Made by a program: the position numbers and the translations under genes. Source: Clostridia bacterium (GTDB lineage: Bacteria > Bacillota > Peptococcia > DRI-13 > PHAD01). Taken from it: 64,000 nt of DNA. The notes under the pieces were generated by a model. That model had not been told where the DNA came from. It saw only the letters and a list, made by a program, of their open reading frames with translations, and searched no databases. The stretch is from NCBI GenBank assembly GCA_034003745.1, contig JAVEYA010000002.1, forward strand, positions 308-64,307, written 5' to 3'. This document shows positions 14,983 through 56,819 of this stretch, piece after piece. Each line of letters begins with the position of its first letter. Position 1 is the first letter of the stretch.

Positions 14983-15013
14983 TGTCATTCTGAACGCAGT
15001 GAAGAATGACAGG
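14983..15013 (+). repeat. TGTCATTCTGAG/GAAGAATC palindromic repeat, copy 1 (single arm closed as hairpin)
   Basis: TGTCATTCTGAACGCAGTGAAGAATGACAGG, with 7-bp stem GTCATTC/GAATGAC. Starts 7 nt after the degU-like stop. Confidence 0.8.
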
Positions 15014-15090
15014 AGTCGCCGAACCGCCCCCTTGTCCCGCTTTATCCTCTGTGCTCACTGCCCCCGCTCGCGCATATAGTATAGTATGAT

Positions 15091-15519
15091 ATGCGAAGCG
15101 GGGGATTTATTTTGGCATTGCTCATGCTGGCAGCGATAAATCTGGGCCTGATCATCTATGGGATACGGCGGATTTTGGAAGAACGCCGGGGTTCCGGCCT
15201 GCCCGCTTTCTTTATTCTTCTCGCCGAAGAAGACGATTATCTGGAAGGGATGCTGCGTTTTCTGGTAGGACAAATGAAACAGGAAGAAATCGCCAATCCG
15301 CTGATCGTCACCTATGAACTTTCCGGGTATCAGAGCAAGGCAATTGCCGATCGATGCGCCCGGGATTTGTCATTTATTGCCTGGGAAATACAAAAAGGGG
15401 AGAATGCGGAGCCATCCGGGCCCAATCTGTTGGATTTACGGGAACGGGGGACCCGGCAAGAGAAGCTATGCTTGATCAAGCTGTTCCTGCGCCGCCAAAA
15501 ATACCTTACCGCAACATAA
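15091..15519 (+). CDS. hypothetical single-TM protein (142 aa)
   Basis: Track ORF. N-terminal hydrophobic helix and GC-rich codon usage. No motif recognised. The start codon sits inside the hairpin at 15059-15104. Confidence 0.45.
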   Translation: MRSGGFILALLMLAAINLGLIIYGIRRILEERRGSGLPAFFILLAEEDDYLEGMLRFLVGQMKQEEIANPLIVTYELSGYQSKAIADRCARDLSFIAWEIQKGENAEPSGPNLLDLRERGTRQEKLCLIKLFLRRQKYLTAT

Positions 15520-15520
15520 C

Positions 15521-15602
15521 TGTCATTCTGAGATAGCGCAGCTATCGAAGAATCTGGCTTTTACAGCAATAGAAAGATCCTTCATTACATTCTTAAATGA
15601 CA
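15521..15602 (+). repeat. palindromic repeat, copy 2 (full, right arm degenerate)
   Basis: TGTCATTCTGAGATAGCGCAGCTATCGAAGAATC...GATCCTTC...AAATGACA. Starts 2 nt after the stop of ORF 15091..15519. Confidence 0.7.
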
Positions 15603-15754
15603 TGTTCCGAGACTGTGGTCTTAGGACGAATGACTGCCAAAAACAGGCGTGCAGCCCGATGGTGAGCCCGGGGCGGCATGCTTTACAATTTAAGCACAAT
15701 GGACGAGCTATCTATTATTGACGAGTACCCAGACCGGCTAAGGAGAGATGGGAA

Positions 15755-15931
15755 ATGGATAAATTCATAAAACAATTGTTGATTGAAGAAAAAGGGCAGG
15801 GCATGGTTGAATACGGGCTCATTATTACCCTGATCTCCTTGGCGGCAGTTTCTGTCATGGGGACAGTGGGAGAAAGATTACTCGAAATGTTTACCGATAT
15901 AGGCACTGAACTGCAAACCCACCTGCCTTAA
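15755..15931 (+). CDS. flp: Flp/Fap family pilin 1 (58 aa, not in ORF track)
   Basis: Hand translation: MDKFIKQLLIEEKGQGMVEYGLIITLISLAAVSVMG... Flp processing motif G/xxxxEY plus a hydrophobic helix. AAGGAGAG lies 7 nt upstream. Confidence 0.8.
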   Translation: MDKFIKQLLIEEKGQGMVEYGLIITLISLAAVSVMGTVGERLLEMFTDIGTELQTHLP

Positions 15932-16230
15932 AAAGCAAGAAAACATGGGACAGGGGGACAGGTCCCTTGTCCCCCCCACGCTATGAAGAAACAAGGAAAT
16001 GGTTTTTGTTGAACACAACAGAAGTCATTTCCTTTTTCTATTCCAGAGTATCTAAGACCAGGGTCTCTTATTTATTGGGATTTATCTCCACGGTTAAAGT
16101 TAGGACGATTTTCTGGAAAAAACAGGATTGCAGACGGATGTTCGAAGATTGCAACAGGCCTTACAATATGAACTACAACGGCTAGCTGTCAATTATCCAG
16201 CATATACAAATTTGTAAAGGAGAGATGAAA

Positions 16231-16413
16231 ATGTTAAAACTCATGAAAAACTTGTTAACCGAAGAAAAAGGACAAGGTCTGGCTGAATACGGTCTCATCC
16301 TGGCGCTGATTTCCTTGGCGGCGATAGCGACGATGGGCCCGCTGGGAACACAAATAAAAACCATTTTTGACAACGTCCGAGTCGAGTTGGGCGGCACTCC
16401 TACCCCCCCGTAA
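16231..16413 (+). CDS. flp: Flp/Fap family pilin 2
   Basis: Track ORF 16225..16413. EEKGQGLAEYGLILALISLAAIA. The second ATG (16231) has proper spacing to AAGGAGAG. Confidence 0.85.
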   Translation: MLKLMKNLLTEEKGQGLAEYGLILALISLAAIATMGPLGTQIKTIFDNVRVELGGTPTPP

Positions 16414-16441
16414 AAAGAAACAGGAATAAAAGGGTAATCAA

Positions 16442-16479
16442 CGGCCCTGCTTAAGGATACTTACGCAGGGCCGCTTTTT
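16442..16479 (+). terminator. rho-independent terminator/attenuator after pilin genes
   Basis: CGGCCCTGC-loop-GCAGGGCCG followed by CTTTTT. Confidence 0.65.
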
Positions 16480-16512
16480 ACCAAGAACCTTAATAATAAA
16501 CAAGAAAAGGGA

Positions 16513-17034
16513 GTGATTTTCTTGTTGCTGATAGATTATCTCCTGCTGCTGGTACTGGCAGTTTCCATCTATACCGATATCCGAGAGCAGAAAATCTATA
16601 ACATCGTGCTTTTCCCGGCTTTCCTTCTGGCCTGGGCTTTTCATTTCCGGACGGGCGGAGGGACGGGCCTCCTCACCTCTCTTCACGGCGCAGGCTTAGG
16701 GTTGGGTTTGTTCTTAATTCCCTATGTCGCCGGCGGATTGGGAGCGGGTGATGTGAAGCTTTTGGCCCTGGTGGGGGCCTGCAAAGGGAGCGCGTTCGTT
16801 TTTACGGCCTTTTTCCTGACCGCTTTGCTGGGCGGAATAATCGCCCTGGCGCTCCTCATTTATCGCGGAGAATTATTGAAAGTATGGGTCCGCCTGAAAG
16901 ACGCCCTGATCGTTTGTATTTTTTCAAGCTTTAAGGTTTGGAATCTAGGCAGTCTGAAGGATGCGGGCAGCGTTAGTTTCCCCTATGGCGTGGCCATTGC
17001 CCTAGGCTCCATGATAACTTACGTGGTGATGTGA
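16513..17034 (+). CDS. cpaA: A24 prepilin peptidase (CpaA/TadV)
   Basis: Polytopic membrane protein with GAGDVKLLALVG motif. The true start may be in-frame TTG 16522, 8 nt after AAGGGAG. Confidence 0.8.
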   Translation: MIFLLLIDYLLLLVLAVSIYTDIREQKIYNIVLFPAFLLAWAFHFRTGGGTGLLTSLHGAGLGLGLFLIPYVAGGLGAGDVKLLALVGACKGSAFVFTAFFLTALLGGIIALALLIYRGELLKVWVRLKDALIVCIFSSFKVWNLGSLKDAGSVSFPYGVAIALGSMITYVVM

Positions 17035-17035
17035 A

Positions 17036-17431
17036 ATGCTGCGGAAATTTTGTCGGGAGAAAAAAGGACAGGGCCTGGTGGAAATGGCTTTGGTTATTCC
17101 TATCCTCCTGATGCTGGTCTTCGGCATTATCGAATTCGGCCGGATTTTCGGCGCCGACCTGGTGGTTAAATATAGCGCGCGGGAAGGGGCCCGGATTGGA
17201 GCCGTCGGCGGTACGGACGCCAATATCCGTTCCCAGATTCGCGACTCGGCTGTCAGCCTGGACCCGGACAAGCTGACTATTACGATTTCTCCGGGGGAAG
17301 CGGCGAGGACGCGGGGCCGGCAAGTCAGCGTGCAGGTTGCCTATCCTCTGGAGATCATGATGCCCCTTTTACCCATGGTGACCGGAGACACGCTTACCGT
17401 GCGCACCACCTGTGTGATGCGGGTAGAATAG
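17036..17431 (+). CDS. tadE: TadE-like pseudopilin/assembly protein
   Basis: N-terminus EKKGQGLVEMALVIPILLMLVFGIIEFGR, typical of the TadE family. The start abuts the cpaA stop. Confidence 0.75.
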   Translation: MLRKFCREKKGQGLVEMALVIPILLMLVFGIIEFGRIFGADLVVKYSAREGARIGAVGGTDANIRSQIRDSAVSLDPDKLTITISPGEAARTRGRQVSVQVAYPLEIMMPLLPMVTGDTLTVRTTCVMRVE

Positions 17432-17446
17432 AATTTTACAGCATGG

Positions 17447-18196
17447 ATGGAGGAGAAATCCTTGAGGAGCAAACTAATATTCTTAATTTCCTTAATATTG
17501 GGATTAGTTACAGCTTACCTGATTTATGATTTTCTTAATAAAACCGAACAATCTGCCGTCAATATCCAATACGGCGAGGTTGTGGTAGCTGCCGTGGATA
17601 TCCTGGAAAAGACCCAGATTAATAATGACATGATTCAGGTCAATAAGCTCCCTGTTGAATATATTCATCCCCAGGCGATCCGGAATAAGAATGAAATTGC
17701 CGGCCGCATTACCACTTCAGCTATCGCGGCGGGAGAACAGCTCTTAAATCAGAAACTGGCGGCGCCGGGAGAAACCGCTTACGGATTGGCTTACGCCATC
17801 CCGCAAGGCAAGCGCGCTCTGACGATCGCGGTGGATACTATCAGCGGAATTGCCGGCTTAATCAAGCCCGGCGATGAAGTGGACGTCGTGGCGGTAATCG
17901 ATCTGCCCGACCCGGGTTCTTCCCGGGATCTCCCTTTCTCCCTGATTGCCCTGCAGGATATCCGGGTTCTGGCCGTTGGATCGCAGATGAAGGATACTCA
18001 TAAAAGCAGCGCCCCGCTGGAATACAGTAATATTACCTTGGCGGTTACGGCGGAGGAAGCCAGGCCGTTGACTTTGGCCGCTGAAAGAGGCTCCATCCGC
18101 CTGATGCTGCGCTCGCCGGTTGATGACAGTAAGGTCAATACCGTTCCCTTTAAAGCGGAGCATTTCCGGCAGCAGCATCAAGATGCCAATTATTAA
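17447..18196 (+). CDS. cpaB: Flp pilus assembly protein CpaB/RcpC
   Basis: N-terminal TM followed by a SAF/RcpC-like beta region. Position in the Tad locus. Alternative start at TTG 17462. Confidence 0.78.
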   Translation: MEEKSLRSKLIFLISLILGLVTAYLIYDFLNKTEQSAVNIQYGEVVVAAVDILEKTQINNDMIQVNKLPVEYIHPQAIRNKNEIAGRITTSAIAAGEQLLNQKLAAPGETAYGLAYAIPQGKRALTIAVDTISGIAGLIKPGDEVDVVAVIDLPDPGSSRDLPFSLIALQDIRVLAVGSQMKDTHKSSAPLEYSNITLAVTAEEARPLTLAAERGSIRLMLRSPVDDSKVNTVPFKAEHFRQQHQDANY

Positions 18197-18215
18197 ATAG
18201 AAGGTGGTGGCCAAC

Positions 18216-19463
18216 ATGCAAGCTATCCGTGTCCTGGTGGTCGATGATGTGGAAGAAACCAGAAATAATATCCGCCGTATCCTCTCTTTTGATAAGGATA
18301 TCGCCGTGATCGGCGAAGGGGGGGACGGCCTGGAAGCATTGCAGAAAGTCAAGGCGCTGGAACCCGATATTGTCCTGATGGACGTCAATATGCCTAAGCT
18401 GAATGGGATTGCCGCCACGGAGAAAATCAGCGCGGAACATCCCGGCGCCGCCGTGATCTTCTTAAGCGTGCAGGGGGAGCCTGAATATATGCGCAAGGCG
18501 ATGATGGCCGGGGCGCGTGATTTTATGGTCAAACCTTTCAGCGGAGACGAACTGGTGGAGACGATCAAGCGGGTTTATCAAATGGAAAGCATCCGGGCAG
18601 TTCCCGGCGGTAAGAAGCCGGTAAAGGCCCACAAGCCGCAGGTCGTAACTATTTTTGGCACCAAGGGCGGGGTGGGCAAGACGACGATCGCCGTCAACAC
18701 GGCTATCCAATTGGCCCAGGCTAAGAAGAAAGTGGCTATGGTCGACCTGGACCTGCAGTTCGGCGATATTTCGATCTTTCTGAATCTTGCGCCGAAACGG
18801 ACTATTGCCGAGTTGGCCCAGGAAGGGAGCCGGCCGGATATTGACCTGATCGAGTCCTACATGATCCCCCATTTATCCGGCATCAGGATCCTGCCGGCGC
18901 CGGGCCGTCCGGAGTATGCCGAATTGATCACCGCCGGACAGATTGAAAATATCCTGACGGTCTTAAAAAGCCATTATGATTATGTGGTGATCGATACGCC
19001 GCCCACGTTCAATGAAACGAACCTGACGGCGCTGGACTTGTCTTCGCAGATCTTTCTGGTTCTTTCCCTGGATCTGGCCACCATTAAAAATGTCAAACTC
19101 AGCCTGGAACTGATGCAGACACTCCACCATATCGGCCGGACCAAGCTCATTCTGAACCGGGCTTCGGAAGATATGGGCATCAAAGTGAACAATGCCGAGG
19201 AAACCCTGGATTTTCTCATTGCGGCGCAATTGCCCAGCGACGGCAAGACCTGCGTTTCCGCGCTGAATAAAGGGATTCCTTTTGTACTTTCGGAACCGAA
19301 CGCCCGGATCAGCCAGGCCATTCGCACAGTCAGCGATTTGATTATAGAGGACAAGGGCTATCAGACGGAACTGAAGGAAAAAAGAATGGGCAGCTTCTTA
19401 GGCCGGCTGTTTAAAGGCGGCTCTTTGCAGCCGGCCAGGAAAGTATCCGGCGGTGGGGAGTGA
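18216..19463 (+). CDS. cpaE: response-regulator receiver fused to CpaE/TadZ (ParA/MinD-like) ATPase
   Basis: REC domain IRVLVVDD...DIVLMDVNMP, then deviant Walker A FGTKGGVGKTT. ATG 18216 lies 8 nt after AAGGTGG. Confidence 0.8.
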   Translation: MQAIRVLVVDDVEETRNNIRRILSFDKDIAVIGEGGDGLEALQKVKALEPDIVLMDVNMPKLNGIAATEKISAEHPGAAVIFLSVQGEPEYMRKAMMAGARDFMVKPFSGDELVETIKRVYQMESIRAVPGGKKPVKAHKPQVVTIFGTKGGVGKTTIAVNTAIQLAQAKKKVAMVDLDLQFGDISIFLNLAPKRTIAELAQEGSRPDIDLIESYMIPHLSGIRILPAPGRPEYAELITAGQIENILTVLKSHYDYVVIDTPPTFNETNLTALDLSSQIFLVLSLDLATIKNVKLSLELMQTLHHIGRTKLILNRASEDMGIKVNNAEETLDFLIAAQLPSDGKTCVSALNKGIPFVLSEPNARISQAIRTVSDLIIEDKGYQTELKEKRMGSFLGRLFKGGSLQPARKVSGGGE

Positions 19464-19469
19464 TGAAGG

Positions 19470-20801: not shown

Positions 20802-20939
20802 ACTTCTGATAAGACTCAATGGAATACCCGTAAGCATTTAGATCGACCCCAGATTAATGTAGTCTCATACTGTACTACATTAGGTCATATCCAAGGTTTA
20901 CACGGATAGAGATTACACAGGGTAATGAGGTAAACTTGC

Positions 20940-22846: not shown

Positions 22847-22872
22847 TTTTTGGAACAGGAGAAGGAGAGAAT

Positions 22873-23256
22873 ATGCACAGAGAATTTGCGCTGATCAAAG
22901 ACCATATCATCATGGTCCCGCGCGTGCGGCTGGCCGATACCTTTCTCCAGCGCTTCCTTGGCCTGATGGGGAAAAAGAGCCTGTCCCGGGAGGAGGGCCT
23001 CCTCTTAAAGGGCTGCCGCCAGATTCATACCTTTTTCATGCGTATGACCATCGACGTGTTGTTCCTGGATAAAGACGGGCAAATTATTGCCGTACTGCCG
23101 GAGCTGGCTCCGGGGAAGATCAGTCCCCTGGTCAAAGGGGCCGGTTATGTGCTGGAACTGCCGGCGGGCAGTATCCGGGAATATGATTTCAGGGAAGGGC
23201 AGCAGTTAAAATTAATCCCGCAAACGACAAAAAGCTCGAATGTACCACAAAATTAA
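22873..23256 (+). CDS. DUF192 (COG1430) protein
   Basis: Track ORF 22843..23256. ATG 22873 follows GGAGAAGGAGAG. FLGLMG...LLKGCRQIHTFFMRMTIDVLFLDKDG pattern typical of DUF192. Confidence 0.7.
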   Translation: MHREFALIKDHIIMVPRVRLADTFLQRFLGLMGKKSLSREEGLLLKGCRQIHTFFMRMTIDVLFLDKDGQIIAVLPELAPGKISPLVKGAGYVLELPAGSIREYDFREGQQLKLIPQTTKSSNVPQN

Positions 23257-23331
23257 CAATATATGAATATAATACTAAATGATGGGAATACTACTAACAA
23301 CAACCTAAATAATAAGGAGGAATTAAATCAA

Positions 23332-24075: not shown

Positions 24076-24155
24076 ATTACTCAGGGGAATCCAGGAGACG
24101 GGTCAGATTCCTGTACTCGACCCTTCTGAATCCCCCTGCGGATTGTCATCCGCTT

Positions 24156-25566: not shown

Positions 25567-25587
25567 ACAGTCCTGAAAAGTATTGCC

Positions 25588-36540: not shown

Positions 36541-36614
36541 TGTCATCCTGAGCCAAGCGAAGGATCTTTCTGCTGTAGGAAAGCTAAGATTCTTCGCTTG
36601 CGCTCAGAATGACA
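36541..36614 (+). repeat. palindromic repeat, copy 3 (full)
   Basis: TGTCATCCTGAGCCAAGCGAAGGATCTTT...AAGATTCTTCGCTTGCGCTCAGAATGACA. Starts 2 nt after the hpf stop. Confidence 0.85.
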
Positions 36615-36663: not shown

Positions 36664-39336
36664 ATGGTGTTGGGTTTTTTAAAGAGTATTCTGGATGAGA
36701 ATGTAAAGGAAGTAAAGCGCCTTTCGAAGAAAGTCGAAAAGATCAACGCTTTGGAATCTGAGATGCAGGCTTTGAGCGATGCGGAGCTGCAGGGAAAGAC
36801 GAATGCATTTAGAGAGCGACTGGACGCTGGGGAGAAGCTGGACGAAATCTTGCCGGAAGCTTTTGCGGTGGTGCGGGAAGCTTCCCGCCGGGTGCTGGGC
36901 ATGCGGCACTTCGATGTGCAGCTGATCGGCGGCATGGCCTTGCATGAAGGCAAGATTGCCGAGATGAAGACCGGCGAGGGCAAGACGCTGGTGGCTACGC
37001 TGCCGGCTTATTTGAACGCCCTTACCGGCCAGGGCGTGCATATCGTCACGGTTAACGATTACCTGGCCCGGCGCGACAGCGAGTGGATGGGCCAGATCTA
37101 CAAGTTCCTGGGTCTATCGGTAGGCCTGATCGTGCATGGGCTGGATTTTGACCAGCGCAAGAACGCCTATAATTCGGACATCACGTACGGCACCAACAAC
37201 GAATTCGGTTTCGACTATCTGCGCGATAATATGGTCATCCGCCCTGAGCACATGGTGCAGCGGGGGCTGCATTACGCCATCGTGGACGAAGTGGACAGTA
37301 TCCTCATCGACGAGGCGCGCACCCCTTTGATTATTTCGGGGGCAGGCAACAAGCCCAAGGATTTGTACCAGAAGGTGGCCAAGATTATCCCCCGGTTGAA
37401 GAATGAAGAGGATTATAAAGTCGATGAGAAGGCCCGTACCGTCGTGCTGACTGAGGAAGGCGTAGAAAAGGCGGAGAAGCTGCTGGGCGTGGAAAACCTC
37501 TATGACGATATCAATATCGAGCTTTCCCATCATGTCAACCAGGCCCTGCACGCCCACACGCTGATGAAGCGCGACGTCGATTACGTGGTCAAGGACGGCG
37601 AGATCATCATCGTAGACGAATTCACGGGCCGCCTGATGTTTGGCCGCCGCTACAGCGAAGGCCTGCACCAGGCCATTGAGGCCAAGGAAGGCGTCAAGAT
37701 CGAGAAGGAATCTCAGACGTTGGCTACGATCACTTTCCAGAACTATTTCCGTATGTTCGGGAAGCTGGCCGGCATGACCGGTACAGCTGTGACGGAAGAG
37801 GAAGAATTCCGGAAGATTTATAAGCTGGACGTCATCGTCATCCCTACTAATATGCCCATGGTCCGGGATGATTTGCCGGATGCCGTCTACCGCACGGAAC
37901 AGGGCAAATTTCAGGCGGCGGTGGAAGAGATTGCCGAGCGCCACGCCGAAGGGCAGCCGGTTCTGGTCGGCACCATTTCCATTGAGAAATCGGAGCTCTT
38001 ATCCAAGCTCCTCACGCTAAAAGGCGTCAAGCATCAGGTCTTAAACGCCAAGTTCCACGACCTGGAAGCGCAGATTGTGGCACAGGCCGGGAGAAAAGGC
38101 GCAATCACGGTTTCCACCAACATGGCCGGCCGCGGCACCGACATCATTTTAGGCGGCAACCCCGGTTATATGGCCCGGCAGGAAATGCTCGCCCAGGGCT
38201 TCCCTTCCGAATTGATCGAAGAGGCTGCCGGAAACAATGTGACGGAAGACCCGGATGTTTTGAGATTACGGGAGCATTACCGCAAGATTTATGAGGAAAA
38301 GAAAAAAGAAACCGACGCCGAACACGAAGAGGTCGTAGCTGTGGGCGGCTTGCATATTATCGGAACGGAGCGCCATGAAAGCCGGCGCATCGATAACCAG
38401 CTGCGCGGCCGGGCAGGCCGCCAGGGCGATCCCGGGGCCTCCCGCTTCTTCATCTCGCTGGAAGATGACCTCATGCGCCTGTTCGGCTCGGAAAATATTA
38501 TGGGCCTGATGGACAAACTGGGGATGGACGATACCATACCCATCGAGAACGGGATGATTTCCCGGGCGATTGAGACAGCCCAGCGCCGCGTGGAAAGCCG
38601 CAACTTCGATATAAGAAAGCATGTGCTGGAATACGACGATGTGATGAACCAGCAGCGTGAAATCATTTATGCCCAGCGTCGCAAAGTACTCATGGGCGAA
38701 AATATGCAGGATTCTGTGCTGGAGATGATTGAGAAGACGGTCGCCCGTACGATCAATACCTTTGCCGGCGGCAGCAAATACCCCGAGGAATGGGATAATG
38801 CGAGCCTTTTGGAACAGGCCCACAAGCTCTTTTTGCCCCAACTGGAGATTACGGCGGAACAGCTGGCCAATATGGAAGCTGACGAGGTGCGGGAGCTCTT
38901 GTTAGAGGAGGCTATGCAGCAATACCGGCAAAAAGAAGCCGAGATGGGGACGGAGCATTTACGGGAATTGGAGCGTATCGTCACCCTGCGTGTGGTGGAC
39001 GGCAAGTGGATGGGGCATCTGGACGCCATGGACCAGCTGCGCCACGGTATCGGCCTCAGGGCATACGGGCAGCGGGATCCGCTGATTGAATACAAGCATG
39101 AAGCCTATGAAATGTTTAATATGATGATTGAAGAGATTCAGGAAGATATCGTCCGCTATGTTTACCATGTGACTTTTGTGGAGAAGCCCAAGGAAGAAAG
39201 AAAAGATATGGTGGAAAACCGCGGTGCGGAAGAAGTCAAAAAGACCCCGGCTACCAGCAGCAAGGTAGTCGGCCGCAATGACCCTTGCCCCTGCGGCAGC
39301 GGCAAGAAATACAAGAAATGCTGCGGGAAAGAATAG
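36664..39336 (+). CDS. secA: preprotein translocase ATPase SecA
   Basis: 890 aa. [20 protein letters not shown] Walker A. C-terminal zinc finger [14 protein letters not shown]. Confidence 0.96.
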
Positions 39337-39347
39337 GAGGAAGCATT

Positions 39348-40455
39348 TTGTCGGCAGAATTGAAGCGTGAACTGGAAAAAGCCAAAAAGAGAATTGAAGA
39401 ATTAAGGGGGTCCCTTTGACTTACCGGCCAAGGAACGGGAACTGGGGGAATTAGAAGAGCTGATGTCGCAACCCGGTTTCTGGGATGAGCTGGAGAAGGC
39501 CCAGGCCATGGGACAGAAGAGCAGCGCCCTTCGAAACAGCCTGGAGGAATTCGCCGGACTGCAGCAGAAGTATGAAGACGGCGAGGTTCTTTGTGAACTG
39601 GCCGAGGAAGGGGAGGAATACCGGCAGGAACTCGCGGATACGGTGGCCCAATTGACCGCCGATCTGGACAAGATGGAACTGCGGCTTCTTTTCAGCGATA
39701 AATACGACGCGTCCAACGCCATTATCTCCCTGCATCCGGGGGCCGGCGGCACCGAGTCCCAGGACTGGACGGAAATGCTCCTTAGAATGTATAGCCGCTG
39801 GGCTGAAAATAAAGGCTTTGCGGTGGAAACCCTGGATTATTTGCCCGGTGACGAAGCGGGCGTAAAAAGCGTTACTTTACTGATTAAAGGAGAAAATGCC
39901 TACGGCTGCCTGAAAGCGGAAAAAGGGGTGCACCGCTTGGTGCGCATTTCACCCTTCGATGCATCCGGACGGCGCCATACTTCTTTTTCCGCCGTGGATG
40001 TGCTGCCGGAAGTCAGCGATGAGGACGCCGGGGAGATAGAACTGGATTATGAGGAAATCCGGGTGGATACTTTCCGCGCCGGGGGCGCCGGGGGTCAGCA
40101 TATCAACAAGACGGAATCGGCGGTGCGAATGACCCATTTGCCCACCGGCATTGTGGTCTCTTGCCAGAATGAGCGCTCGCAGATCCAGAACCGGGCGGCC
40201 TGCGAAAAAATTCTCAAAGCCAGGCTCCTGGAGCGTCGGCGGGCCGAACAGGACGCGGAGATCAACAATATCCGGGGCGAGCAGCAGGATATCGCCTGGG
40301 GCAGTCAGATCCGCTCCTATGTCTTTCACCCGTACAATATGGTCAAGGACCACCGCACCAATACGGAGACAGGCAATGTCTACGGGGTGATGGACGGCGA
40401 TCTGGACCCTTTTATTGACGCGTATCTGCGTCATCTGGCCGGCCAGGATAAATAA
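39348..40455 (+). CDS. prfB: peptide chain release factor 2 (programmed +1 frameshift at 39414-39420)
   Basis: Frame 0 runs from TTG 39348 (after AGGAGG) to CTT TGA (39414-39419), with AGGGGG upstream. The +1 frame continues to 40455 and carries SPF and GGQ motifs. Confidence 0.9.
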
Positions 40456-40477
40456 AGCGGGCAGGCAGAACATGCGC

Positions 40478-40546
40478 GTCATTCTGAGCGCAGTGAAGAA
40501 TCTTATGGTTCTAACAAAAGGATTCTTCGTTTTACTCAGAATGACA
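40478..40546 (+). repeat. palindromic repeat, copy 4 (full)
   Basis: GTCATTCTGAGCGCAGTGAAGAATCTT...AGGATTCTTCGTTTTACTCAGAATGACA. Starts 23 nt after the prfB stop. Confidence 0.85.
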
Positions 40547-44958: not shown

Positions 44959-45033
44959 TGTCATTCTGAGCGTTAGCGAAGAATCTTTCTATTGCAAGAA
45001 CCAACAAGATTCTTCGCTGCGCTCAGAATGACA
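44959..45033 (+). repeat. palindromic repeat, copy 5 (full, best preserved)
   Basis: TGTCATTCTGAGCGTTAGCGAAGAATCTT-loop-AAGATTCTTCGCTGCGCTCAGAATGACA. Starts 20 nt after the ftsX stop. Confidence 0.9.
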
Positions 45034-47701: not shown

Positions 47702-47817
47702 CTAAAATAGACTTTTCGTGTATAATATATTTTATAATACTTTAGCGGGCAGTGTGTGATATAATATCTTCTCAAATAGTTCCCGAAAATAACCCAAAGA
47801 TAGACGTGGTGAAGAAA

Positions 47818-49791: not shown

Positions 49792-49830
49792 CACAGCAGA
49801 CATACAGTTTAAGCGGAAAGGGAAAGAAAC

Positions 49831-52650
49831 ATGGCCAAGGATAAAATTATCGTCAAGGGAGCACGCTCCCATAACTTAAAAAATATCGATGTGGAGATCC
49901 CACGGGACCAGTTGGTGGTGATTACCGGGCTTTCCGGTTCAGGGAAGTCCTCCCTGGCCTTCGATACGATCTATGCCGAGGGACAGCGGCGCTATGTGGA
50001 GTCGCTTTCTTCCTATGCCCGCCAATTCCTGGGGCAGATGGACAAACCTGATGTCGACTATATTGAGGGCCTCTCCCCGGCTATTTCCATCGACCAGAAG
50101 ACGACGAGCCGTAACCCTCGTTCCACCGTAGGCACCGTAACGGAGATTTACGATTATCTGCGTCTTCTCTTTGCCCGTATCGGGAAGGTCCACTGCCATA
50201 AATGCGGCCAACCCATTACCCAGCAGACCGTCGAGCAGATTGTCGACCGCCTGCTCCTCTTGCCGGAAGGGACGAAAATTCAGGTTTTATCTCCGCTGGT
50301 CAGGGGCCGCAAAGGGGAACATCAGAAGGTTTTCGAAGAGATCCGTAAAAACGGCTTTGTGCGTGTGCGGGTTAACGGGGAACTGCGGGAGGCCGCTGAA
50401 GAAATCAAGCTGGAAAAGAATAAAAAGCATACCATTGAGGCGGTGGTGGACAGGCTGATCATCCGTCCGGGAGTGGAAAAACGTTTGGCGGATTCGCTGG
50501 AAACAGCGCTGCAACTCTCCGATGGCCTGGTCAGCGTGGACGCGGCGGAGCAGGGGGAGTTCCTCTTTTCCGAGAAATTTGCCTGCCCGAAGTGCGGTAT
50601 CAGTTTTGAAGAACTGACCCCGCGCATGTTTTCCTTCAATAACCCTTACGGAGCTTGCCCCACTTGCGGCGGTCTGGGCTTTAAGCTGGAAATCGACCCG
50701 GACCTGGTCGTGCCCGATCCGGGCAAAAGCCTGGCCGGGGGCGCTATCGACCCTTGGAACAGGGGGCTTTCCCCCTGGTATATGGGCATGCTGGAGTCGC
50801 TGGCCAAAGAATACAGCTTCTCCATGGATACGCCTTTCCGGGACCTGACTCCGGAACAGCAGGATGTGGTGCTGTACGGTACGGACGGAAGAAAAATCCG
50901 TTTCCGTTATCATAATGCCCAGGGAGAACTGCGGGTTTTCGATACCTCTTTTGAAGGCGTGGTCAACAACCTGGAGCGGCGTTTCCGGGAAACCCAGTCC
51001 GACTACTCCCGGCAGGACATCGAGGCCTATATGAGCAGCCATGAGTGCCCGGCCTGCCTGGGCGCCCGTTTGAAGCCGGAAGTGCTGGCCGTCACCGTCG
51101 GCGGTAAAAATATCTGGGAAGTGACCCGCCTGTCCGTGGGCGAAGCGATGGCCTTCTTTAACGCCCTCGAACTGACGCCCCGGGAGGAGCAGATTGCCCG
51201 GCAGATCATGAAGGAAATCAGGGCCCGCTTAGGCTTCCTCCTGAATGTCGGCCTGGATTACCTGACTCTGCACCGGGCGGCGGGAACGCTCTCGGGCGGC
51301 GAGGCTCAGCGTATCCGCCTGGCCACGCAGATCGGCTCCCATCTGGTGGGTGTGCTCTATATTTTGGATGAACCCTCCATCGGATTGCACCAGCGGGACA
51401 ACAACCGGCTGATTGAGACGCTGAAATCCCTGCGTGACCTGGGCAACACGGTGCTGGTGGTGGAACACGACACCGATACCATCTATGCGGCGGACCATAT
51501 TATTGATATCGGACCGGGCGCGGGGGTACACGGCGGCTTTATTGTGGCCCAGGGCGCCGCCGAAGATATTAAGGCTGAACCGGACTCCATCACGGGGGCC
51601 TATCTGAGCGAACGGCTGCAGATACCGCTTCCTGCTCTTCGGCGGCCGCCCAATGGTAAGTGGCTGCAGGTCAAAGGGGCCCGGACCAATAACTTAAAGA
51701 GCATTGACGTGGCTTTTCCGCTGAACCTCTTTGTCTGCGTGACCGGGGTCTCCGGTTCGGGCAAAAGCAGCCTGGTCAATGAGATTCTCTACCGTCATCT
51801 GGCCCATGAATTGAACCGGGCCCGCACCAGGCCGGGCGGTTATGACAGCATTGAAGGATTGGCCTATCTGGATAAAGTCATCAATATCGATCAGTCCCCT
51901 ATCGGGCGGACGCCCCGTTCCAATCCGGCCACCTATACCGGCGTCTTCGACGCTATCCGGGAAGTCTATGCTCAGACGCCGGAAGCCCGTATGCGCGGGT
52001 ACAAAGCCGGACGCTTCAGCTTCAACGTCAAGGGCGGGCGCTGCGAAGCCTGTACCGGGGACGGCATCATCAAGATAGAAATGCATTTTCTGCCCGACGT
52101 CTACGTGCCTTGCGAGGTCTGTAAAGGCAAGCGCTATAACCGGGAGACGCTGGAAGTGAAATACAAAGGCAAGTCCATCTCGGATGTTTTGGAGATGACC
52201 GTGGATGAGGCGGCTGATTTCTTCCAAAACCATCCTAAAATCTACCGCAAGCTGAAGACCATCCAGGAAGTCGGCCTGGGCTACATCCGGCTGGGCCAGC
52301 CGGCCACCACCCTGTCCGGCGGCGAAGCCCAGCGGGTCAAGCTGGCTACGGAGCTCTCCCGCCGTTCCAACGGCAAAACCTTCTATATCCTGGATGAACC
52401 GACTACGGGATTGCATATCGCCGATATCCATAAGTTGCTGGAAGTGCTGAACCGGCTGGTTGACGCCGGCGATACCGTGCTGGTCATCGAGCATAACCTG
52501 GACGTGATCAAGACGGCGGACTACATCATCGACCTGGGGCCGGAAGGCGGCGACCGGGGCGGGCAGGTGATCGCCACCGGCACGCCGGAGGAAATCTGCA
52601 AGAACAAAAAGAGCTATACCGGGCAATTTCTCAAGCCGGTGCTGAAGTAA
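49831..52650 (+). CDS. uvrA: excinuclease ABC subunit A
   Basis: 939 aa. [14 protein letters not shown] and [10 protein letters not shown] Walker A motifs, zinc-finger Cys clusters. Confidence 0.96.
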
Positions 52651-52675
52651 ATAGGCTATCGCAGAATAACCGATG

Positions 52676-52771
52676 TGTCATTCTGAGACCCTGTAATGGT
52701 CGAAGAATCTTAGAGATCGAAGTAATTTATCCTGATAATAATTAAGATCCTTCGCCCTGCTCAGGATGACA
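52676..52771 (+). repeat. palindromic repeat, copy 6 (full, long loop)
   Basis: TGTCATTCTGAGACCCTGTAATGGTCGAAGAATCTTA...TTAAGATCCTTCGCCCTGCTCAGGATGACA. Starts 26 nt after the uvrA stop. Confidence 0.85.
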
Positions 52772-52824
52772 GTCTGTTTTAAGACAGCCTCAAATCGGGA
52801 GGCAAAAAGCAGGAGATGGTATTT

Positions 52825-54675
52825 ATGCTGGAAGAAAAACTGAAGAGCCTGCCGGATAAGCCTGGCGTCTATCTGATGAAGGACGCGGAGGGGAAGATTA
52901 TCTATGTCGGCAAAGCCATCAGCTTAAAGAGCCGTGTCCGCTCTTATTTTTCTTCACAGCACGCCGGGATGCCCCGCACTCAGGCGCTGGTCAGGAGAAT
53001 CAGCGACCTGGAGTACATCCTCACGGATGGGGAGATAGAAGCGCTCATTTTAGAAAGTAATCTGATTAAAGAATACAAACCGAAGTATAATGTGCGCCTG
53101 ACCGACGATAAGAACTATCCCTTTCTGCGGGTGAGTACCCAGGAGGATTTCCCCCGCCTGGAAATCGTGCGCTCCCGCAAAAGGGACGGCGCCCGCTATT
53201 TCGGTCCCTATACCAATACCGGCGCAGTCAATGAAACCCTGCGCCTCCTGAAAAAGATTTTTCCCATCCGTTCCTGTAAGCAGCCCAATTTCGCGCGCCG
53301 GGACCGACCCTGCCTGAATTCCCATATTGCCCGGTGCGCCGCGCCCTGCTGCGGCCAGATCAGCAAAGAAGATTACCGCAAGATGATTGAGGAAATCCTC
53401 CTCTTCCTGGACGGCAGACAGGAGGATCTCTTCAAGAAGCTGCAGTCCCGCATGGAAGAGGCGGCGGAGAACCTGCGCTTCGAAAAGGCCGCGGAGCTGC
53501 GGGATCAGCTGCAGGCTATCCAAAGCGTGGTAGCGCGCCAGAAAATCGTCTCGGGCAAGTTCGTGGATATCGACGCGCTTCATTACGCCCGCAGCACCAA
53601 AATGACCTGTGTACAGATTTTCTTTATCCGGGAGGGCAAAGTGCTGGGACGGGACCGTTTCTTTCTGGAAGGGACGGAAGATACGACCGGGGAGGAAATC
53701 CTGGCTTCCTTCCTGAAGCAGTATTACAGCCAGGTGGACTATACGCCGGCGGAAATATTGCTGCCGGAAAAACTGGAAGAAGAAACGGTGCTGGAAAACT
53801 GGCTTTCGGAGAAAAGGGGCGCCAAGGTGCACTTGAAAGTCCCTAAAGCCGGGGAGAAACGAGCGCTGCTGGAGCTGGTGGGGCGTAACGCCGCTGAAAG
53901 CCTGCAAATGGAAGCGGGCGCCTTGGCGGCGCGTGAGCATAAAGGAAACGAAGCCCTGGAGCAGGTTGCCGCGGCCCTGAATCTGGACGCCAAACCCCAG
54001 CGTATCGAATGTTATGATATCTCCCATATCCAAGGGGCGGAAACCGTAGCCTCCATGGTGGTCTTCGAGCAGGGCCGGGCCGCTCCCGCCAAATACCGGC
54101 GCTTTAAAATCAGGACGGTCCAGGGGCCGGACGATTTCGCCAGTATGGCTGAAGTAATTGAGCGCCGTTTTACGAATGCCTTGGCCGGTGAGGAGAAATT
54201 CAAAGAGTTGCCGGATTTGGTCTTAATCGACGGCGGCAAGGGGCAGCTTTCCGCCGCTTGCGAAGCCATGGGGAAATTGGGTTTTGGACATATTCCCGCG
54301 GCTGGATTGGCCAAGGAGAATGAATGGCTGTTTATTCCCGCAAGTTCTATGCCGGTTATTTTGCCGCGCAATTCCCAGGGGCTGAATCTCCTGCAGCGCA
54401 TCCGGGACGAGGCGCACCGTTTCGCAGTGACCTACCATCGCCTGCTGCGGGGCCGGCGGAATCTGGCCTCTGTTCTGGACGAAATTCCCGGCGTTGGCCC
54501 GAAGCGGAAGAAGGACTTGCTCAAAGCTTTCGGCATGTCCTTAAAGAAGATGATGAACGCTTCTCCTGCGGAAATTGCAGAGATTGAGGGGATTAACGCG
54601 GAGTTGGCGAAGAAGATTTGGGAATATTTTCACCCCATGGAGACAGACAATAACGGAGAAGGAAAGGAGCCTTAG
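52825..54675 (+). CDS. uvrC: excinuclease ABC subunit C
   Basis: GIY-YIG N-terminus (PGVYLMKDAEGKIIYVGKA), UVR domain FEKAAELRDQ, C-terminal HhH. ATG 52825 lies 9 nt after AGGAG. Confidence 0.94.
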   Translation: MLEEKLKSLPDKPGVYLMKDAEGKIIYVGKAISLKSRVRSYFSSQHAGMPRTQALVRRISDLEYILTDGEIEALILESNLIKEYKPKYNVRLTDDKNYPFLRVSTQEDFPRLEIVRSRKRDGARYFGPYTNTGAVNETLRLLKKIFPIRSCKQPNFARRDRPCLNSHIARCAAPCCGQISKEDYRKMIEEILLFLDGRQEDLFKKLQSRMEEAAENLRFEKAAELRDQLQAIQSVVARQKIVSGKFVDIDALHYARSTKMTCVQIFFIREGKVLGRDRFFLEGTEDTTGEEILASFLKQYYSQVDYTPAEILLPEKLEEETVLENWLSEKRGAKVHLKVPKAGEKRALLELVGRNAAESLQMEAGALAAREHKGNEALEQVAAALNLDAKPQRIECYDISHIQGAETVASMVVFEQGRAAPAKYRRFKIRTVQGPDDFASMAEVIERRFTNALAGEEKFKELPDLVLIDGGKGQLSAACEAMGKLGFGHIPAAGLAKENEWLFIPASSMPVILPRNSQGLNLLQRIRDEAHRFAVTYHRLLRGRRNLASVLDEIPGVGPKRKKDLLKAFGMSLKKMMNASPAEIAEIEGINAELAKKIWEYFHPMETDNNGEGKEP

Positions 54676-54676
54676 T

Positions 54677-55492
54677 GTGCCTGATATCAAGCTTGTAGCA
54701 CTGGATCTGGATGATACGCTGCTGAGGACGGATTTGACCATTTCCCCCCGGGCCCAAGCCGCCATTAAGAAGGCGGTAGCGTTAGGGACAGCCGTCACTT
54801 TTGCCACCGGGAGGATGTATAAGTCGGCCCGCCCGTTCGCGGTGGAGCTGGGACTGGATTTGCCCCTGATTACCTATGTGGGCGCTCTGGTGAAATATGT
54901 GGACGGCCGCGAGGTTTATCACCGGCCGCTATCCCTGGAGACGGCCGGGAAGATAATTGATTTTCTGCTGCCCTATAAGTATCACATCAATATCTACATC
55001 AATGATGAATTATATATGGAGAAAGAATCGCCGGAAGGGGCGCGCTACGCCAATATTTCCAAGGTGCCGGTCCATTTTGTCAATGATTTGCGGGAGACCT
55101 TGCAGGCCTCGCCGGCGCCGACGAAGATTCTGGCTCTGTCCGGCGCGCCGGAGATCGCGGCTTTGCTGGCGGATATTCAGCAGGCCTTTGGCGGGCAGGT
55201 CCATATTACCCGTTCCAAACCCTACTTTTTGGAAATCTCCGATCTGGGGGCCACCAAAGGACAGGCTTTGGCGGGGCTGGCCCGGAGCCTGAATCTGACG
55301 GCCGGTCAGGTTATGGCTATCGGCGACAGCTGGAACGACCTGGATATGATTGAATACGCCGGAATAGGCGTGGCGATGGGCAATGCCGAGGCGGAAGTAA
55401 AGGCGGCGGCCCAATATATTACGTTGAATAATGACGACGACGGCGTGGCCGAGGCCATCGAGAAATTTGTTATAAACAGGAATATTAAATAG
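54677..55492 (+). CDS. Cof-type HAD-IIB phosphatase
   Basis: GTG 54677 lies 7 nt after GGAAAGGAG. LVALDLDDTLL motif I, GDSWNDLDM motif III. Confidence 0.8.
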   Translation: MPDIKLVALDLDDTLLRTDLTISPRAQAAIKKAVALGTAVTFATGRMYKSARPFAVELGLDLPLITYVGALVKYVDGREVYHRPLSLETAGKIIDFLLPYKYHINIYINDELYMEKESPEGARYANISKVPVHFVNDLRETLQASPAPTKILALSGAPEIAALLADIQQAFGGQVHITRSKPYFLEISDLGATKGQALAGLARSLNLTAGQVMAIGDSWNDLDMIEYAGIGVAMGNAEAEVKAAAQYITLNNDDDGVAEAIEKFVINRNIK

Positions 55493-55507
55493 ATGAATCA
55501 GTAAAGA

Positions 55508-55540
55508 TTAACAAAAAATAACAAAATTATTTTTTGTTAA
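55508..55540 (+). terminator. AT-rich hairpin terminator
   Basis: TTAACAAAAAAT-loop-ATTTTTTGTTAA, 12-bp stem. Confidence 0.5.
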
Positions 55541-55598
55541 GCAGGAAATAACTGTTATTCGTCGAAATATAGCAACATCAAGAAAAATGGAGGTAAAC

Positions 55599-55787
55599 AT
55601 GGGAGGGAAAGCTTTCGAGAAGAAGAACCTCGAACAGATTGAATTTCTCCGTTATGACTTGTACAAGCAGGTAAACAATAAAAGAGAAATGCTTTGTTCC
55701 AAGGAAGTGTATGAAGTCAGTAAGCGTCTGGACCAGCTGATTATCAAGCACATGTCTTCTCAGTCCGGGAAAGATCCGCAGCAATAG
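55599..55787 (+). CDS. Spo0E-like aspartyl-phosphate phosphatase
   Basis: IEFLRYDLYKQV...EVYEVSKRLDQLI pattern of the Spo0E family. ATG 55599 follows GGAGGT (track start 55587 overlaps the SD). Confidence 0.65.
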   Translation: MGGKAFEKKNLEQIEFLRYDLYKQVNNKREMLCSKEVYEVSKRLDQLIIKHMSSQSGKDPQQ

Positions 55788-55887
55788 ACATAGACGCGGA
55801 AATTAAGATTTAAACACGAATAAAAGAGGATATATCCCGAAAATGTCTAATTTACTATAATATTAGACACGGAAGGGATATTTTTTT

Positions 55888-56751
55888 ATGCGTAAATACA
55901 TAACAGGCATCATAATTATAGTGTGTGTATTCTTTCTGGCACTGGCGGCCGGACAGGCCACAGGCCTTTCTGTGACGCAGCTGTTTGCCGGAGAACAGGA
56001 AGGCTCTGCGGATGCCGTTGAGAATATGGATAATGTTGCTGAGCCTGCTGAGCCGGATTTACCCGAACCCCCGACGGAGCCGGAAGTGGAAATGCCGCCC
56101 GAATACCCGCAGGGGCTTGCCTATGAGGATGTATTGGCCCTGATTAAGGAGCCCAATAAGAAAATGACGGAGAACCCCGACGCCATCCTGGCGCTGGTCA
56201 ATAAAAACAATAACCTGGCGGCTGATTACGTTCCGGTCGGGATGGTTGAGCCCGCGGTGCCCTTTTCTTTCCAGAACGCCGATGAGAAACGCCTGATGCG
56301 GCCGGAGGCGGCGCAGGCCCTGGAGGAATTGTTTGCCGCCGCGACGGAAGCGGGGCATCAATTGGCCGCGGTTTCCGGTTTCCGCTCCTATGGGCGGCAG
56401 AAGTCCATTTTCTTGAATAATGTGCAGAAAAGCGGTTTCGAGCGGGCCAATTTCTTTTCCGCCCTGCCCGGACAAAGCGAGCACCAGACCGGCCTGGCCA
56501 TGGACGTCAGTTCCGCGGCGGTGGGCTATAAGCTGGTGACGAATTTCGGAGAGACGCCGGAGGGAAGCTGGCTGAACGATAATGCTCATATTTTCGGCTT
56601 TATTATCCGGTACCCGCAGGATAAGACCGACCTCACCGGCTACCAGTATGAACCCTGGCATCTCCGCTTCGTGGGTGTGGACGCGGCCGCGGAAATAAAT
56701 GCCCGGGGCTGGGTGCTGGAAGAATATCTGGCGGATTTGAACCAGACCTGA
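55888..56751 (+). CDS. VanY/M15B D-alanyl-D-alanine carboxypeptidase-like
   Basis: Signal/anchor N-terminus. SGFRSYGRQ, SEHQTGLAMD, EPWHLRFVG zinc-peptidase motifs. Confidence 0.85.
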   Translation: MRKYITGIIIIVCVFFLALAAGQATGLSVTQLFAGEQEGSADAVENMDNVAEPAEPDLPEPPTEPEVEMPPEYPQGLAYEDVLALIKEPNKKMTENPDAILALVNKNNNLAADYVPVGMVEPAVPFSFQNADEKRLMRPEAAQALEELFAAATEAGHQLAAVSGFRSYGRQKSIFLNNVQKSGFERANFFSALPGQSEHQTGLAMDVSSAAVGYKLVTNFGETPEGSWLNDNAHIFGFIIRYPQDKTDLTGYQYEPWHLRFVGVDAAAEINARGWVLEEYLADLNQT

Positions 56752-56793
56752 TTTTTTGGGACACGGGAAGCAAGGGGACGGTTCCTCTGCTTC

Positions 56794-56819
56794 TGTCATT
56801 CTGAGCTTGCGAAGAATCC
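56794..56819 (+). repeat. palindromic repeat, copy 7 (left arm only)
   Basis: TGTCATTCTGAGCTTGCGAAGAATCC. 43 nt after the VanY-like stop. Followed by the unrelated hairpin GGCCTTAAGAC-TGCGCG-GTCTTAAGGCC (56831-56858). Confidence 0.75.

Follow-up and report, generated by a model that had tools for sequence, protein, structure and literature searches.

The repeats described here most closely resemble the Neisseria Transformation Sequence (NTS), CGTCATTCCCGCGMAVGCGGGAATCYRG, which extends the older dRS3 repeat and has been generalised as the Ssn-related motif (SRM) (Chenal et al. 2025, PMC11893778). SRMs are oriented hairpins of 20–50 nt whose tag on the 5' side, (H)GTCW(Y), is unpaired and required for cleavage, and they occur in hundreds of copies per genome, mainly at extragenic positions (PMC11893778). 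The enzyme that recognizes them, SsnA, is a 94-aa single-domain GIY-YIG protein (CDD cd10448) that binds the hairpin on one strand only, and only in single-stranded DNA, and cleaves a few nucleotides upstream of it, acting on neither double-stranded DNA nor RNA (PMC11893778). Cleavage depends on the three bases that precede the palindrome, and binding depends most of all on the C that follows it (PMC11893778). In N. meningitidis, SsnA reduces the integration of transforming DNA that bears the repeat (PMC11893778). An SsnA homologue is present in 81% of the genomes with more than 200 SRMs and missing in 19%, the characterised Ssn enzymes are those of Neisseria and Wolbachia, and the authors point to the insertion sequence (IS)-like NTS-ssnA-NTS layout and to an analogy with repetitive extragenic palindromes (REPs) and their REP-associated tyrosine transposases (RAYTs) (PMC11893778). 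In this study, we analysed a family of palindromic repeats in a 64,000-nt stretch of the metagenome-assembled genome (MAG) of a Clostridia bacterium (GenBank assembly GCA_034003745.1, contig JAVEYA010000002.1, positions 308–64,307 of the forward strand; hereafter, the window). These repeats are probably a tandem-G·A form of the SRM (GA-type), that is, oriented DNA hairpins that would mark sites for an Ssn nuclease. The SRM/Ssn system itself was already published in 2025; the tandem-G·A form escapes the published search pattern.

The first-pass annotation of the window had described seven palindromic repeat sites, all of them intergenic. All seven are present at the coordinates reported there, as both the sequence and an unfiltered covariance-model scan showed, and their anatomy can be drawn more finely: arm alignment indicated that the true repeat unit is half of the palindrome originally described. 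With up to two mismatches, the 12-mer TGTCATTCTGAG has 16 matches in the window against 3.6 expected, a count reached by 0 of 100 shuffles, and GAAGAATC has 9 matches against 2.9 expected. A covariance model (CM) of the unit, run unfiltered on the window, finds exactly 11 strong half-units (31–46 bits, E 1e-8 to 3e-5); the only addition is a decayed right arm at the second site (15573–15604), the rest being noise. The copies, numbered c1 to c7 in window order, are as follows.

c1, singlet, 14983–15013, + strand: TGTCATTCT-GAACGCAGTGA-AGAATGACA; CM match 14981–15011, 39.6 bits.
c2, left half-unit, 15521–15554, + strand: enlarged apical stem GAG-ATAGC-GCA-GCTAT-CGA; CM match 15519–15557, 32.3 bits.
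c2, right half-unit, decayed, 15576–15602, - strand: TGTCATTTAAGAATGTAATGAAGGATC (read on the - strand); CM match 15573–15604, 8 bits, E 9.8.
c3, left half-unit, 36541–36566, + strand: stem ATCCT/AGGAT, compensatory with respect to the right half; CM 44.4 bits.
c3, right half-unit, 36588–36614, - strand: stem ATTCT/AGAAT, GCAA loop; CM 38.9 bits.
c4, left half-unit, 40477–40502, + strand: tag CGTCA, apical stem with a basal G-T pair; CM 41.1 bits.
c4, right half-unit, 40521–40546, - strand: apical T-A in place of C-G, AAA loop; CM 39.7 bits.
c5, left half-unit, 44959–44985, + strand: GTTA loop; CM 36.8 bits.
c5, right half-unit, 45008–45033, - strand: nearest to the consensus of all copies; CM 45.8 bits.
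c6, left half-unit, 52676–52709, + strand: enlarged apical stem-loop GAG-ACC-CTGTAAT-GGT-CGA; CM 31.5 bits.
c6, right half-unit, 52746–52771, - strand: ATCCT/AGGAT variant; CM 42.1 bits.
c7, singlet, 56794–56818, + strand: CTTG loop; CM 33.8 bits.

The unit has the consensus T-GTCA-TYCT-GA-G-(loop or small stem-loop)-C-GA-AGRA-TC and a length of 25–35 nt. On its 5' side it has an unpaired tag, (T)GTCA. Next come a stem of 5 bp (ATYCT/AGRAT) and two G·A mismatches in tandem; the apex is a mini-hairpin that is closed by G-C and varies in size, and a conserved C lies 3' of the stem. The GTCA tag is kept in 11/11 window units, with a T before it in 10/11 and after it in 11/11; both GA dinucleotides are likewise kept in all 11, and a C directly follows the palindrome (...AGRAT-C) in 10/11, c1 having a G. 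Two inverted units make up a doublet at four sites (36541, 40477, 44959 and 52676), with TGTCA outermost and 18–36 nt between the units. Most copies have this arrangement, around a spacer of 15–40 nt, and the inversion places one unit in the correct orientation on either strand of the DNA. Site 15521–15604 is a doublet whose right half has decayed to a CM score at noise level, so that it is recognised by its position and ends only, and the copies at 14983–15013 and 56794–56818 are singlets. Since its 3' side extends into TGACA, c1 can close on itself as a 9-bp hairpin (TGTCATTCT/AGAATGACA). Extrapolated to a 3-Mb genome from the 64-kb window alone, the density of 11 units would correspond to several hundred copies.

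Like the SRM and NTS, the window unit is an oriented hairpin of ~28 nt: the tag, (C/T)GTCAT, is unpaired, the stem begins ATT.../...AAT, and a C trails the palindrome. It is also extragenic, multi-copy, and often arranged in +/- pairs, and in other genomes copies of it stand on both sides of a gene for a single-domain GIY-YIG protein of ~94 aa, much as the ends of an IS do. The covariance model aligns NTS over its full length with 13–16 bits. The NTS stem is a continuous CCCGC/GCGGG helix, whereas that of the window unit is interrupted by the two G·A mismatches and capped by the variable G-C-closed mini-hairpin, and the host is a Clostridia MAG as opposed to the mainly Pseudomonadati hosts of PMC11893778. 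The window copies also recall dRS3 and the Neisseria intergenic mosaic elements (NIMEs) in having inverted hairpin pairs around a short variable segment between genes; the stem sequence differs, and the window unit occurs in near-identical form across phyla, whereas NIMEs are found in Neisseria alone.

The unit appears to be a hairpin under selection. In the window, a compensated stem, ATCCT...AGGAT, is present in two units (36541+ and 52771-), the other units having ATTCT...AGAAT. Further compensations are GAA...TGA for GAG...CGA in c1 and an apical T-A for C-G in the right half of c4, and in the left halves of c2 and c6 the loop has been swapped for a longer perfect stem (ATAGC/GCTAT and ACC/GGT, respectively). 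As these changes preserve the local hairpin and break the complementarity between the halves of a doublet, it is the half-unit that behaves as the constrained module. Genome loci elsewhere that carry the unit have more compensated stems, namely TCCC/GGGA, CCCT/AGGG, TTCC/GGAA, TGCT/AGCA, and others. Covariation was analysed in an alignment (A3) of 96 independent units located beside ssn genes in unrelated metagenomes; another alignment (A1) holds 48 units. In A3, five of the seven Watson-Crick pairs vary on both sides, and the observed covariation score was reached by none of 500 shuffles. Paired cells account for 99.7%, compared with 18–54% when the partners are slid, a fraction inflated by the fitting of this alignment to the model; the double changes are real nonetheless. 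G-U pairs occupy a single one of 616 stem cells. TGTCA is invariant (96/96), the 3' C is present in 95/96, both GA dinucleotides are invariant or nearly so, and the apical loop is G-N-A. Folded as DNA, whole doublets reach -16 to -28 kcal/mol with z-scores of -5.9 to -10.6 (c3, -23.4 kcal/mol, z -6.7; c4, -15.8 kcal/mol, z -5.9; c5, -28.4 kcal/mol, z -10.6), and the c1 singlet folds at -6.8 kcal/mol (z -3.9).

A candidate partner of the unit was found in other genomes. Within 250 nt of the units, 659 open reading frames (ORFs) from 120 genome loci were clustered; among the matches listed, the sole small family that recurs beside the unit is a GIY-YIG protein of 93–100 aa, present at three loci, and no Y1, DDE, or other transposase recurs. 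The first-pass annotation had suggested a Y1 transposase of the REP-associated type as a possible partner, and this was not borne out, the tightly linked neighbour being a GIY-YIG nuclease of the Ssn family. Of the ORF clusters, the GIY-YIG cluster alone was then tested against Pfam, which confirmed it: the protein from locus L009 consists of a GIY-YIG domain only (PF01541, E 5e-17). In each of L009, L046, and L022, the GIY-YIG gene has a + unit on one side and a - unit on the other, and tight bracketing is also present in L206. The L009 cassette has a particularly compact, insertion-sequence-like layout, with the left unit ending 4 nt before the ATG and the right unit starting 4 nt past the stop.

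The association also holds in the opposite direction. Among 80 metagenome loci picked solely by similarity to the partner protein, 78 carry the unit, and the covariance model finds 307 units in their 278 kb. A unit lies within 150 nt upstream of 60 of 77 ssn genes and within 150 nt downstream of 63 of 72, and unit density falls from 7.7/kb within 150 nt of the gene to 2.2/kb at 150–500 nt and 0.05–0.2/kb farther away. When compared with the N. gonorrhoeae chromosome, the L009 protein gives a single match (46% identity, E 4e-16), and the matched gene is embedded in an array of seven exact NTS repeats in +/- pairs. The pairs around this gene (1766+/1847-, 2018+/2099-, and 2280+/2360-) have the same layout as the window doublets. 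The protein WP_083616022.1, encoded on a Planktothrix plasmid, is 68% identical and is flanked by GA-type units. The partner protein has no sequence match among solved structures and no NCBIfam family. From these sequence comparisons, it appears to belong to the SsnA family.

The loci of this survey gave three further observations. The Planktothrix agardhii plasmid (NZ_LR882964.1; L206, 16347–21613) carries its Ssn-like gene and GA-type units inside a defence island, with a type IIL MmeI restriction-modification gene on one side of the Ssn-like gene and the DISARM gene drmA on the other. NZ_CP119142.1 and NZ_CP119140.1 are 2.17-Mb Neisseria gonorrhoeae records filed as plasmids in PLSDB, and they are evidently chromosomes. 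In L205, the ssnA-like frame seems to be disrupted near its 5' end, as the frame with YILASQRNGTLYIG lacks an ATG immediately upstream.

Several points weigh against identifying the window repeats with the SRM. The published search sequence, HGTCWYN(0-2)YYVSBRHN(0-5)WNVSBRGN(0-2)RNCYNB, matches none of the 11 window units and none of the 144 aligned units (0/48 in A1 and 0/96 in A3); it has two matches in the window, both at unrelated sites inside genes, and the same expression does match NTS. This degenerate sequence is the authors' search tool and not a definition of the family, and the GA-type falls outside it. Cross-specificity among Ssn clades is limited (PMC11893778). The 64-kb window contains no ssn gene, and the first-pass annotation had seen no cognate transposase there. 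Spacers and loops vary among the window copies, so that these are not recent offspring of one master. The loci used for the statistics were chosen by pattern or by one protein clade, and their gene calls are crude. Singlets are sense-oriented to the neighbouring gene at a ratio of 45:19 elsewhere and 3:0 in the window, a bias that is also expected from a role at the RNA level. The GC skew is positive along the whole window, so that the + strand, which bears all three singlets, would be the lagging-strand template; the strand placement of the singlets fits such a DNA-level bias as well as it fits sense orientation. Finally, the isolated half-unit folds at only -1 to -3 kcal/mol in the nearest-neighbour model, no better than shuffles. 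This model credits neither tandem sheared G·A pairs in a Y-GA-R context nor GNA loops. Both are stable structures. The assignment as a hairpin therefore draws on the covariation together with this stability.

We propose the following mechanism for the GA-type unit. A unit would fold when its strand becomes single-stranded, be it during replication, during repair, or in incoming transforming or conjugative DNA, and the lagging-strand template would be transiently single-stranded at each passage of the fork. The folded form would be bound by an Ssn, a small nuclease with GIY-YIG as its single domain, which would then cut a few nucleotides 5' of the GTCA tag and would leave double-stranded DNA and RNA untouched, as expected from homology with the enzymes of Neisseria and Wolbachia. 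Any effect on transcripts would be secondary. Since 81% of the genomes with more than 200 motifs have an SsnA homologue (PMC11893778), the MAG presumably encodes an Ssn of its own. The doublets would be non-autonomous derivatives that spread, or formerly spread, with the help of this enzyme. Strand transfer is beyond an enzyme that only hydrolyses DNA; speculatively, the spread of copies would require template switching at the hairpin, or else that the cut be followed by repair or recombination.

It is also conceivable, although rather unlikely, that the copies are inert SRM-type relics of an old invasion, that the nuclease has been lost from the genome, and that nothing acts on the units. Such a history fits the window without an ssn gene, the decayed arm of c2, the c1 copy without a 3' C, the differences among all loops and spacers, and the 19% of genomes with more than 200 SRMs that have no SsnA homologue (PMC11893778). 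However, GTCA and both GA dinucleotides have been kept in 11/11 units and the 3' C in 10/11, while the unconstrained loop and spacer positions have diverged, and two compensated stem variants are present within the window. The retention of invariant positions beside diverged loops therefore suggests continued constraint or a recent origin.

The unit is not confined to the window, a possibility that the first-pass annotation had raised. A scan of species-representative genomes with the pattern GTCATYCTGAG-N(3-15)-YGAAGRATC returned at least 120 stretches, and among the matches listed the unit is present in more than 20 phyla. Among the hosts are Chloroflexota, Acidobacteriota, Nitrospirota, Bacteroidota, Saccharibacteria, Paceibacterota, Gracilibacteria, Omnitrophota, and Planctomycetes, as well as several proteobacterial classes, Helicobacter, Melainabacteria, and several Clostridia; the unit sequence is nearly identical across these phyla. 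Doublets with TGTCA facing outward ('+ -') prevail outside the window, with 63 such doublets against 11 '- +' pairs and a median spacer of 33 nt. Some genomes have arrays of alternating units; one of them is a Lachnospiraceae MAG (L075, 5555–5627 and 7512–7726), with a tandem array in which two subtypes, a long one (GAG-GAGCGAAGCGAC-GAAG) and a short one (GAGCAACGCGAAG), alternate in opposite orientation. Viral contigs also carry the unit, the same pattern scan of IMG/VR giving at least 120 stretches (L213–L332). Among the matches listed, an Ssn-like protein is encoded in 0 of 120 unit-bearing viral stretches (1.15 Mb). The units on viral contigs may represent prophage borders, passive carriage, or targets.

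Comparison with relatives suggests that the window copies were gained in this lineage. Five genomes served as relatives, with SecA 80–85% identical and syntenic flagellar-hpf-secA-prfB-tkt-ftsX blocks. Counting copies in related genomes with a consensus model had been proposed at the outset; an unfiltered scan with our covariance model found no unit in the syntenic DNA of these five genomes (67 kb + 75 kb). The prfB-tkt spacer is 6–21 nt long in the relatives compared with 112 nt in the window. In the relative L001 it reads GCGGTGC followed by GAGGAGGCACATAG-atg, and in the window it reads AGCGGGC, ~90 nt with the doublet, and then CGAGGAGGCACACAAG-atg. Because the L001 spacer aligns across the gap, the c4 doublet lies in an insertion of ~90 nt that spares the ribosome-binding site (RBS). 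The copies between uvrA and uvrC and between prfB and tkt interrupt gene pairs that are compact in the relatives. Given that the same spacers lack units in five relatives, the window copies are best explained as insertions, which appear to have entered the intergenic spacers after the lineage split from the sampled relatives. The direct repeats that flank 67 doublets (L005–L124 and the window) match the shuffled expectation, and thus no target-site duplication was detected.

The flanks of the same 67 doublets show a weak compositional bias, with C enriched ~6 nt before TGTCA (32/67) and G ~5 nt after TGACA (29/67); this bias could be part of the cleavage-site context. In the relatives, ParE/Phd toxin-antitoxin genes fill two of the spacers concerned, between hpf and secA and after ftsX (L207, 9109–9712; L004, 17466–17783), and these spacers seem to take different small insertions in different lineages.

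A more tentative reading, which we consider possible but somewhat less probable than its opposite, places the unit-ssn-unit cassette in a class of prokaryotic mobile elements of its own. Its 'transposase' would be a GIY-YIG nuclease, hydrolytic and with a single domain, that works on single-stranded DNA, and the window doublets would be its non-autonomous miniature derivatives. Such an element would move without target-site duplication, would cross phyla, possibly on phage DNA, and would have invaded the present lineage after the split. The IS-like architecture was raised in PMC11893778 as a hypothesis only.

The placement of the repeats among genes bears on whether they act in DNA or in RNA. 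The elements start 7, 2, 2, 23, 20, 26, and 43 nt past the upstream stop codons in window order, and the upstream genes, apart from the ORF at 15091 before the second site, encode Response_reg+GerE, S30AE/HPF, PCRF+RF-1, FtsX, UvrA, and VanY domains in the same order; ORF ends and Pfam domains thus bear out the stop-codon distances and gene names assigned earlier. Since ~50 of the 55 called window genes lie on the + strand, a position downstream of a + strand stop is shared by almost any spacer of the window. All seven sites are non-coding, as had been noted; with ~11% of the window non-coding, the chance of this is ~2e-7 by our own arithmetic. The upstream stop is closer than the next start at six of the seven sites. 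The ORFs called from 40415 and 56756, which had been dismissed as artefacts, are indeed over-extended through the repeats. For the former, the real start is ATG 40568, which has the RBS GAGGAGG and is in register with the start in the relatives, and for the latter it is probably ATG 56915.

In other genomes, the units are mostly extragenic according to crude ORF calls, and 74 units lie in co-directional, 31 in convergent, and 16 in divergent spacers, compared with ~73, 20, and 28 expected from spacer length (chi-square ~11, own arithmetic), with divergent spacers still holding 13%. The units do favour gene 3' ends, though mildly. The insertion or retention preference for 3' UTRs proposed in the first-pass annotation is retained in this weak form, convergent spacers being enriched and divergent ones depleted.

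The same annotation had proposed that the copies probably double as transcription terminators or mRNA stabilisers and that several are the only terminator hairpin of their operon. An action chiefly on RNA, with the hairpins ending transcription or shielding mRNA 3' ends from within the 3' UTR, would agree with the start of the elements 2–43 nt past stop codons, with the long hairpins formed by the doublets (-16 to -28 kcal/mol as DNA), with the 45:19 sense orientation of singlets in other genomes, and with the enrichment of convergent (31 vs 20 expected) and depletion of divergent (16 vs 28) spacers. We nevertheless regard such a role as very unlikely. A hairpin shortly after a stop codon is what these elements share with intrinsic terminators; they differ in being AT-rich and mismatched with long loops, and identical sequence across phyla is not a terminator property. 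A stem-plus-T-tract scan reports 0/7 elements at its loop limit of 3–8 nt, which excludes the doublets anyway, and therefore the missing T tracts are the stronger point: no T run follows the hairpin in 5/7 copies, and TTTT follows 44959–45033 only. A separate GC-rich hairpin with a T tract lies at 56830–56857 (+), right after c7, and is likely the real terminator of the vanY-like gene. Nor did the terminator scans confirm the proposal that several copies provide the sole terminator hairpin for the operons concerned.

The prfB-tkt copy precedes an intact RBS, and the same spacer is only 6–21 nt long in the relatives. Furthermore, whichever half of a doublet is antisense has C·U where the sense half has the tandem G·A, and conservation is nonetheless equal in the two; G-U pairs are almost missing from the stems (1/616 cells). 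Rfam gives only chance matches to long hairpins, SsnA does not bind RNA (PMC11893778), and 13% of the copies lie between divergent genes. Thus, the elements do not look like terminators, and a secondary effect on mRNA ends is conceivable beside a role in DNA. Between the terminator at 56830–56857 and ATG 56915, a sigma-70-like promoter (TTGACT-17-TATTAT) is located within 56858–56886 (+).

The elements had also been classed as a family resembling REPs or miniature inverted-repeat transposable elements (MITEs). The REP part of this description stands at the level of architecture. REPs, the bacterial interspersed mosaic elements (BIMEs), and REPINs share with the window unit a short, dispersed extragenic palindrome, a conserved unpaired 5' tetranucleotide, inverted doublets, which are probably what spreads, and alternating arrays. 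In the window, four of the seven sites, plus one decayed, are doublets of the REPIN kind. As in REP/RAYT systems, the repeats flank an enzyme gene, the hairpin would be recognised in single-stranded form, and target-site duplication is missing. However, REP super-families are defined by GTAG and CGTC tags (PMC3733652), and the unit carries GTCA. The enzyme here is a hydrolytic GIY-YIG nuclease as opposed to a covalent HUH/Y1 transposase, and the unit is common to many phyla, whereas REPs are lineage-specific. The unit also resembles IS200/IS605 elements and their miniature derivatives, whose subterminal hairpins are read as single-stranded DNA, which are linked to the lagging-strand template, and which leave no target-site duplication; it differs from them in that there is no TnpA/TnpB and in that the ends are inverted copies of one hairpin and not distinct left and right ends. 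As for MITEs, inverted ends are shared with those of the DDE type, and target-site duplication is missing from the 67 doublets.

Mobilisation by a Y1 HUH transposase, as in a classical REP/REPIN family with its RAYT, seems highly improbable as an explanation of the window copies, and so does a DDE-type MITE. The extragenic imperfect palindromes, the unpaired 5' tetranucleotide, the inverted doublets, the BIME-like alternating arrays (L075), and the lack of target-site duplication, as in IS200/IS605 relatives, would all agree with such an origin, and yet the tag is not one of the REP tags, the sequence is near-identical in more than 20 phyla and not lineage-specific, and no Y1 or DDE transposase recurs in the 659 ORFs from 120 loci among the matches listed, whereas the GIY-YIG gene does. 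The terminal repeats of a DDE-type MITE serve as transposase binding sites. Covariation within each arm and missing target-site duplication do not fit such repeats.

Other candidates were considered and set aside. A self-cleaving ribozyme of the hammerhead type (GUC ... CUGA-G ... CGAA-G) was dropped, as the unit has no NGA of CUGANGA, no GAAA, and no stem I, and a kink-turn was rejected because there is no 3-nt bulge. Sequence, the setting among housekeeping genes, and the covariation inside each arm spoke against integron attC sites, DNA uptake sequences, and transcription-factor operators, which were likewise rejected. At gathering thresholds, Rfam finds only a cobalamin riboswitch in the window. 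Rfam scans by E-value with one doublet and one array gave only chance matches to long hairpins (miRNA precursors) and to snoRNA and SAH families, and a literature search with unit sequence strings returned only unrelated primers.

Three features in and around the repeat-bearing genes are worth recording. A 142-aa ORF at 15091–15519 (+), which is hydrophobic in an N-terminal segment and matches no Pfam family, lies between c1 and c2, an arrangement that corresponds to the 'repeat-gene-repeat' layout discussed for Neisseria genes in the Ssn paper (PMC11893778). The cobalamin riboswitch (RF00174, 107 bits) is located at 57794–57968 (+) and is followed by a terminator-like hairpin at 58022–58054 and then by a long ORF at 58085–61291. 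The start of the prfB ORF is listed as 39463 (region 39336–39463), and the PCRF match begins at profile position 12. The prfB gene usually has a programmed +1 frameshift near its 5' end.

What is new here is the variant motif with its model, its presence in a Clostridia MAG and in viral contigs, and the evidence for lineage-specific insertion. The covariance model detects a motif type that is widespread and lies outside the reach of the published search pattern, and GA-type repeats can now be annotated; left unrecognised, they cause spurious ORFs and N-terminal extensions such as those called from 40415 and 56756. The tandem G·A and GNA mini-hairpin may point to a specificity class of Ssn enzymes, which is relevant to the proposed use of Ssn proteins as single-stranded-DNA tools. 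The empty sites in the relatives are direct comparative evidence of unit gain and bear on the question of whether Ssn systems are mobile or domesticated. If the function established in Neisseria holds in this organism, the units would have a local influence on how incoming DNA recombines at the flanked core genes hpf, secA, prfB, ftsX, and uvrA/uvrC.

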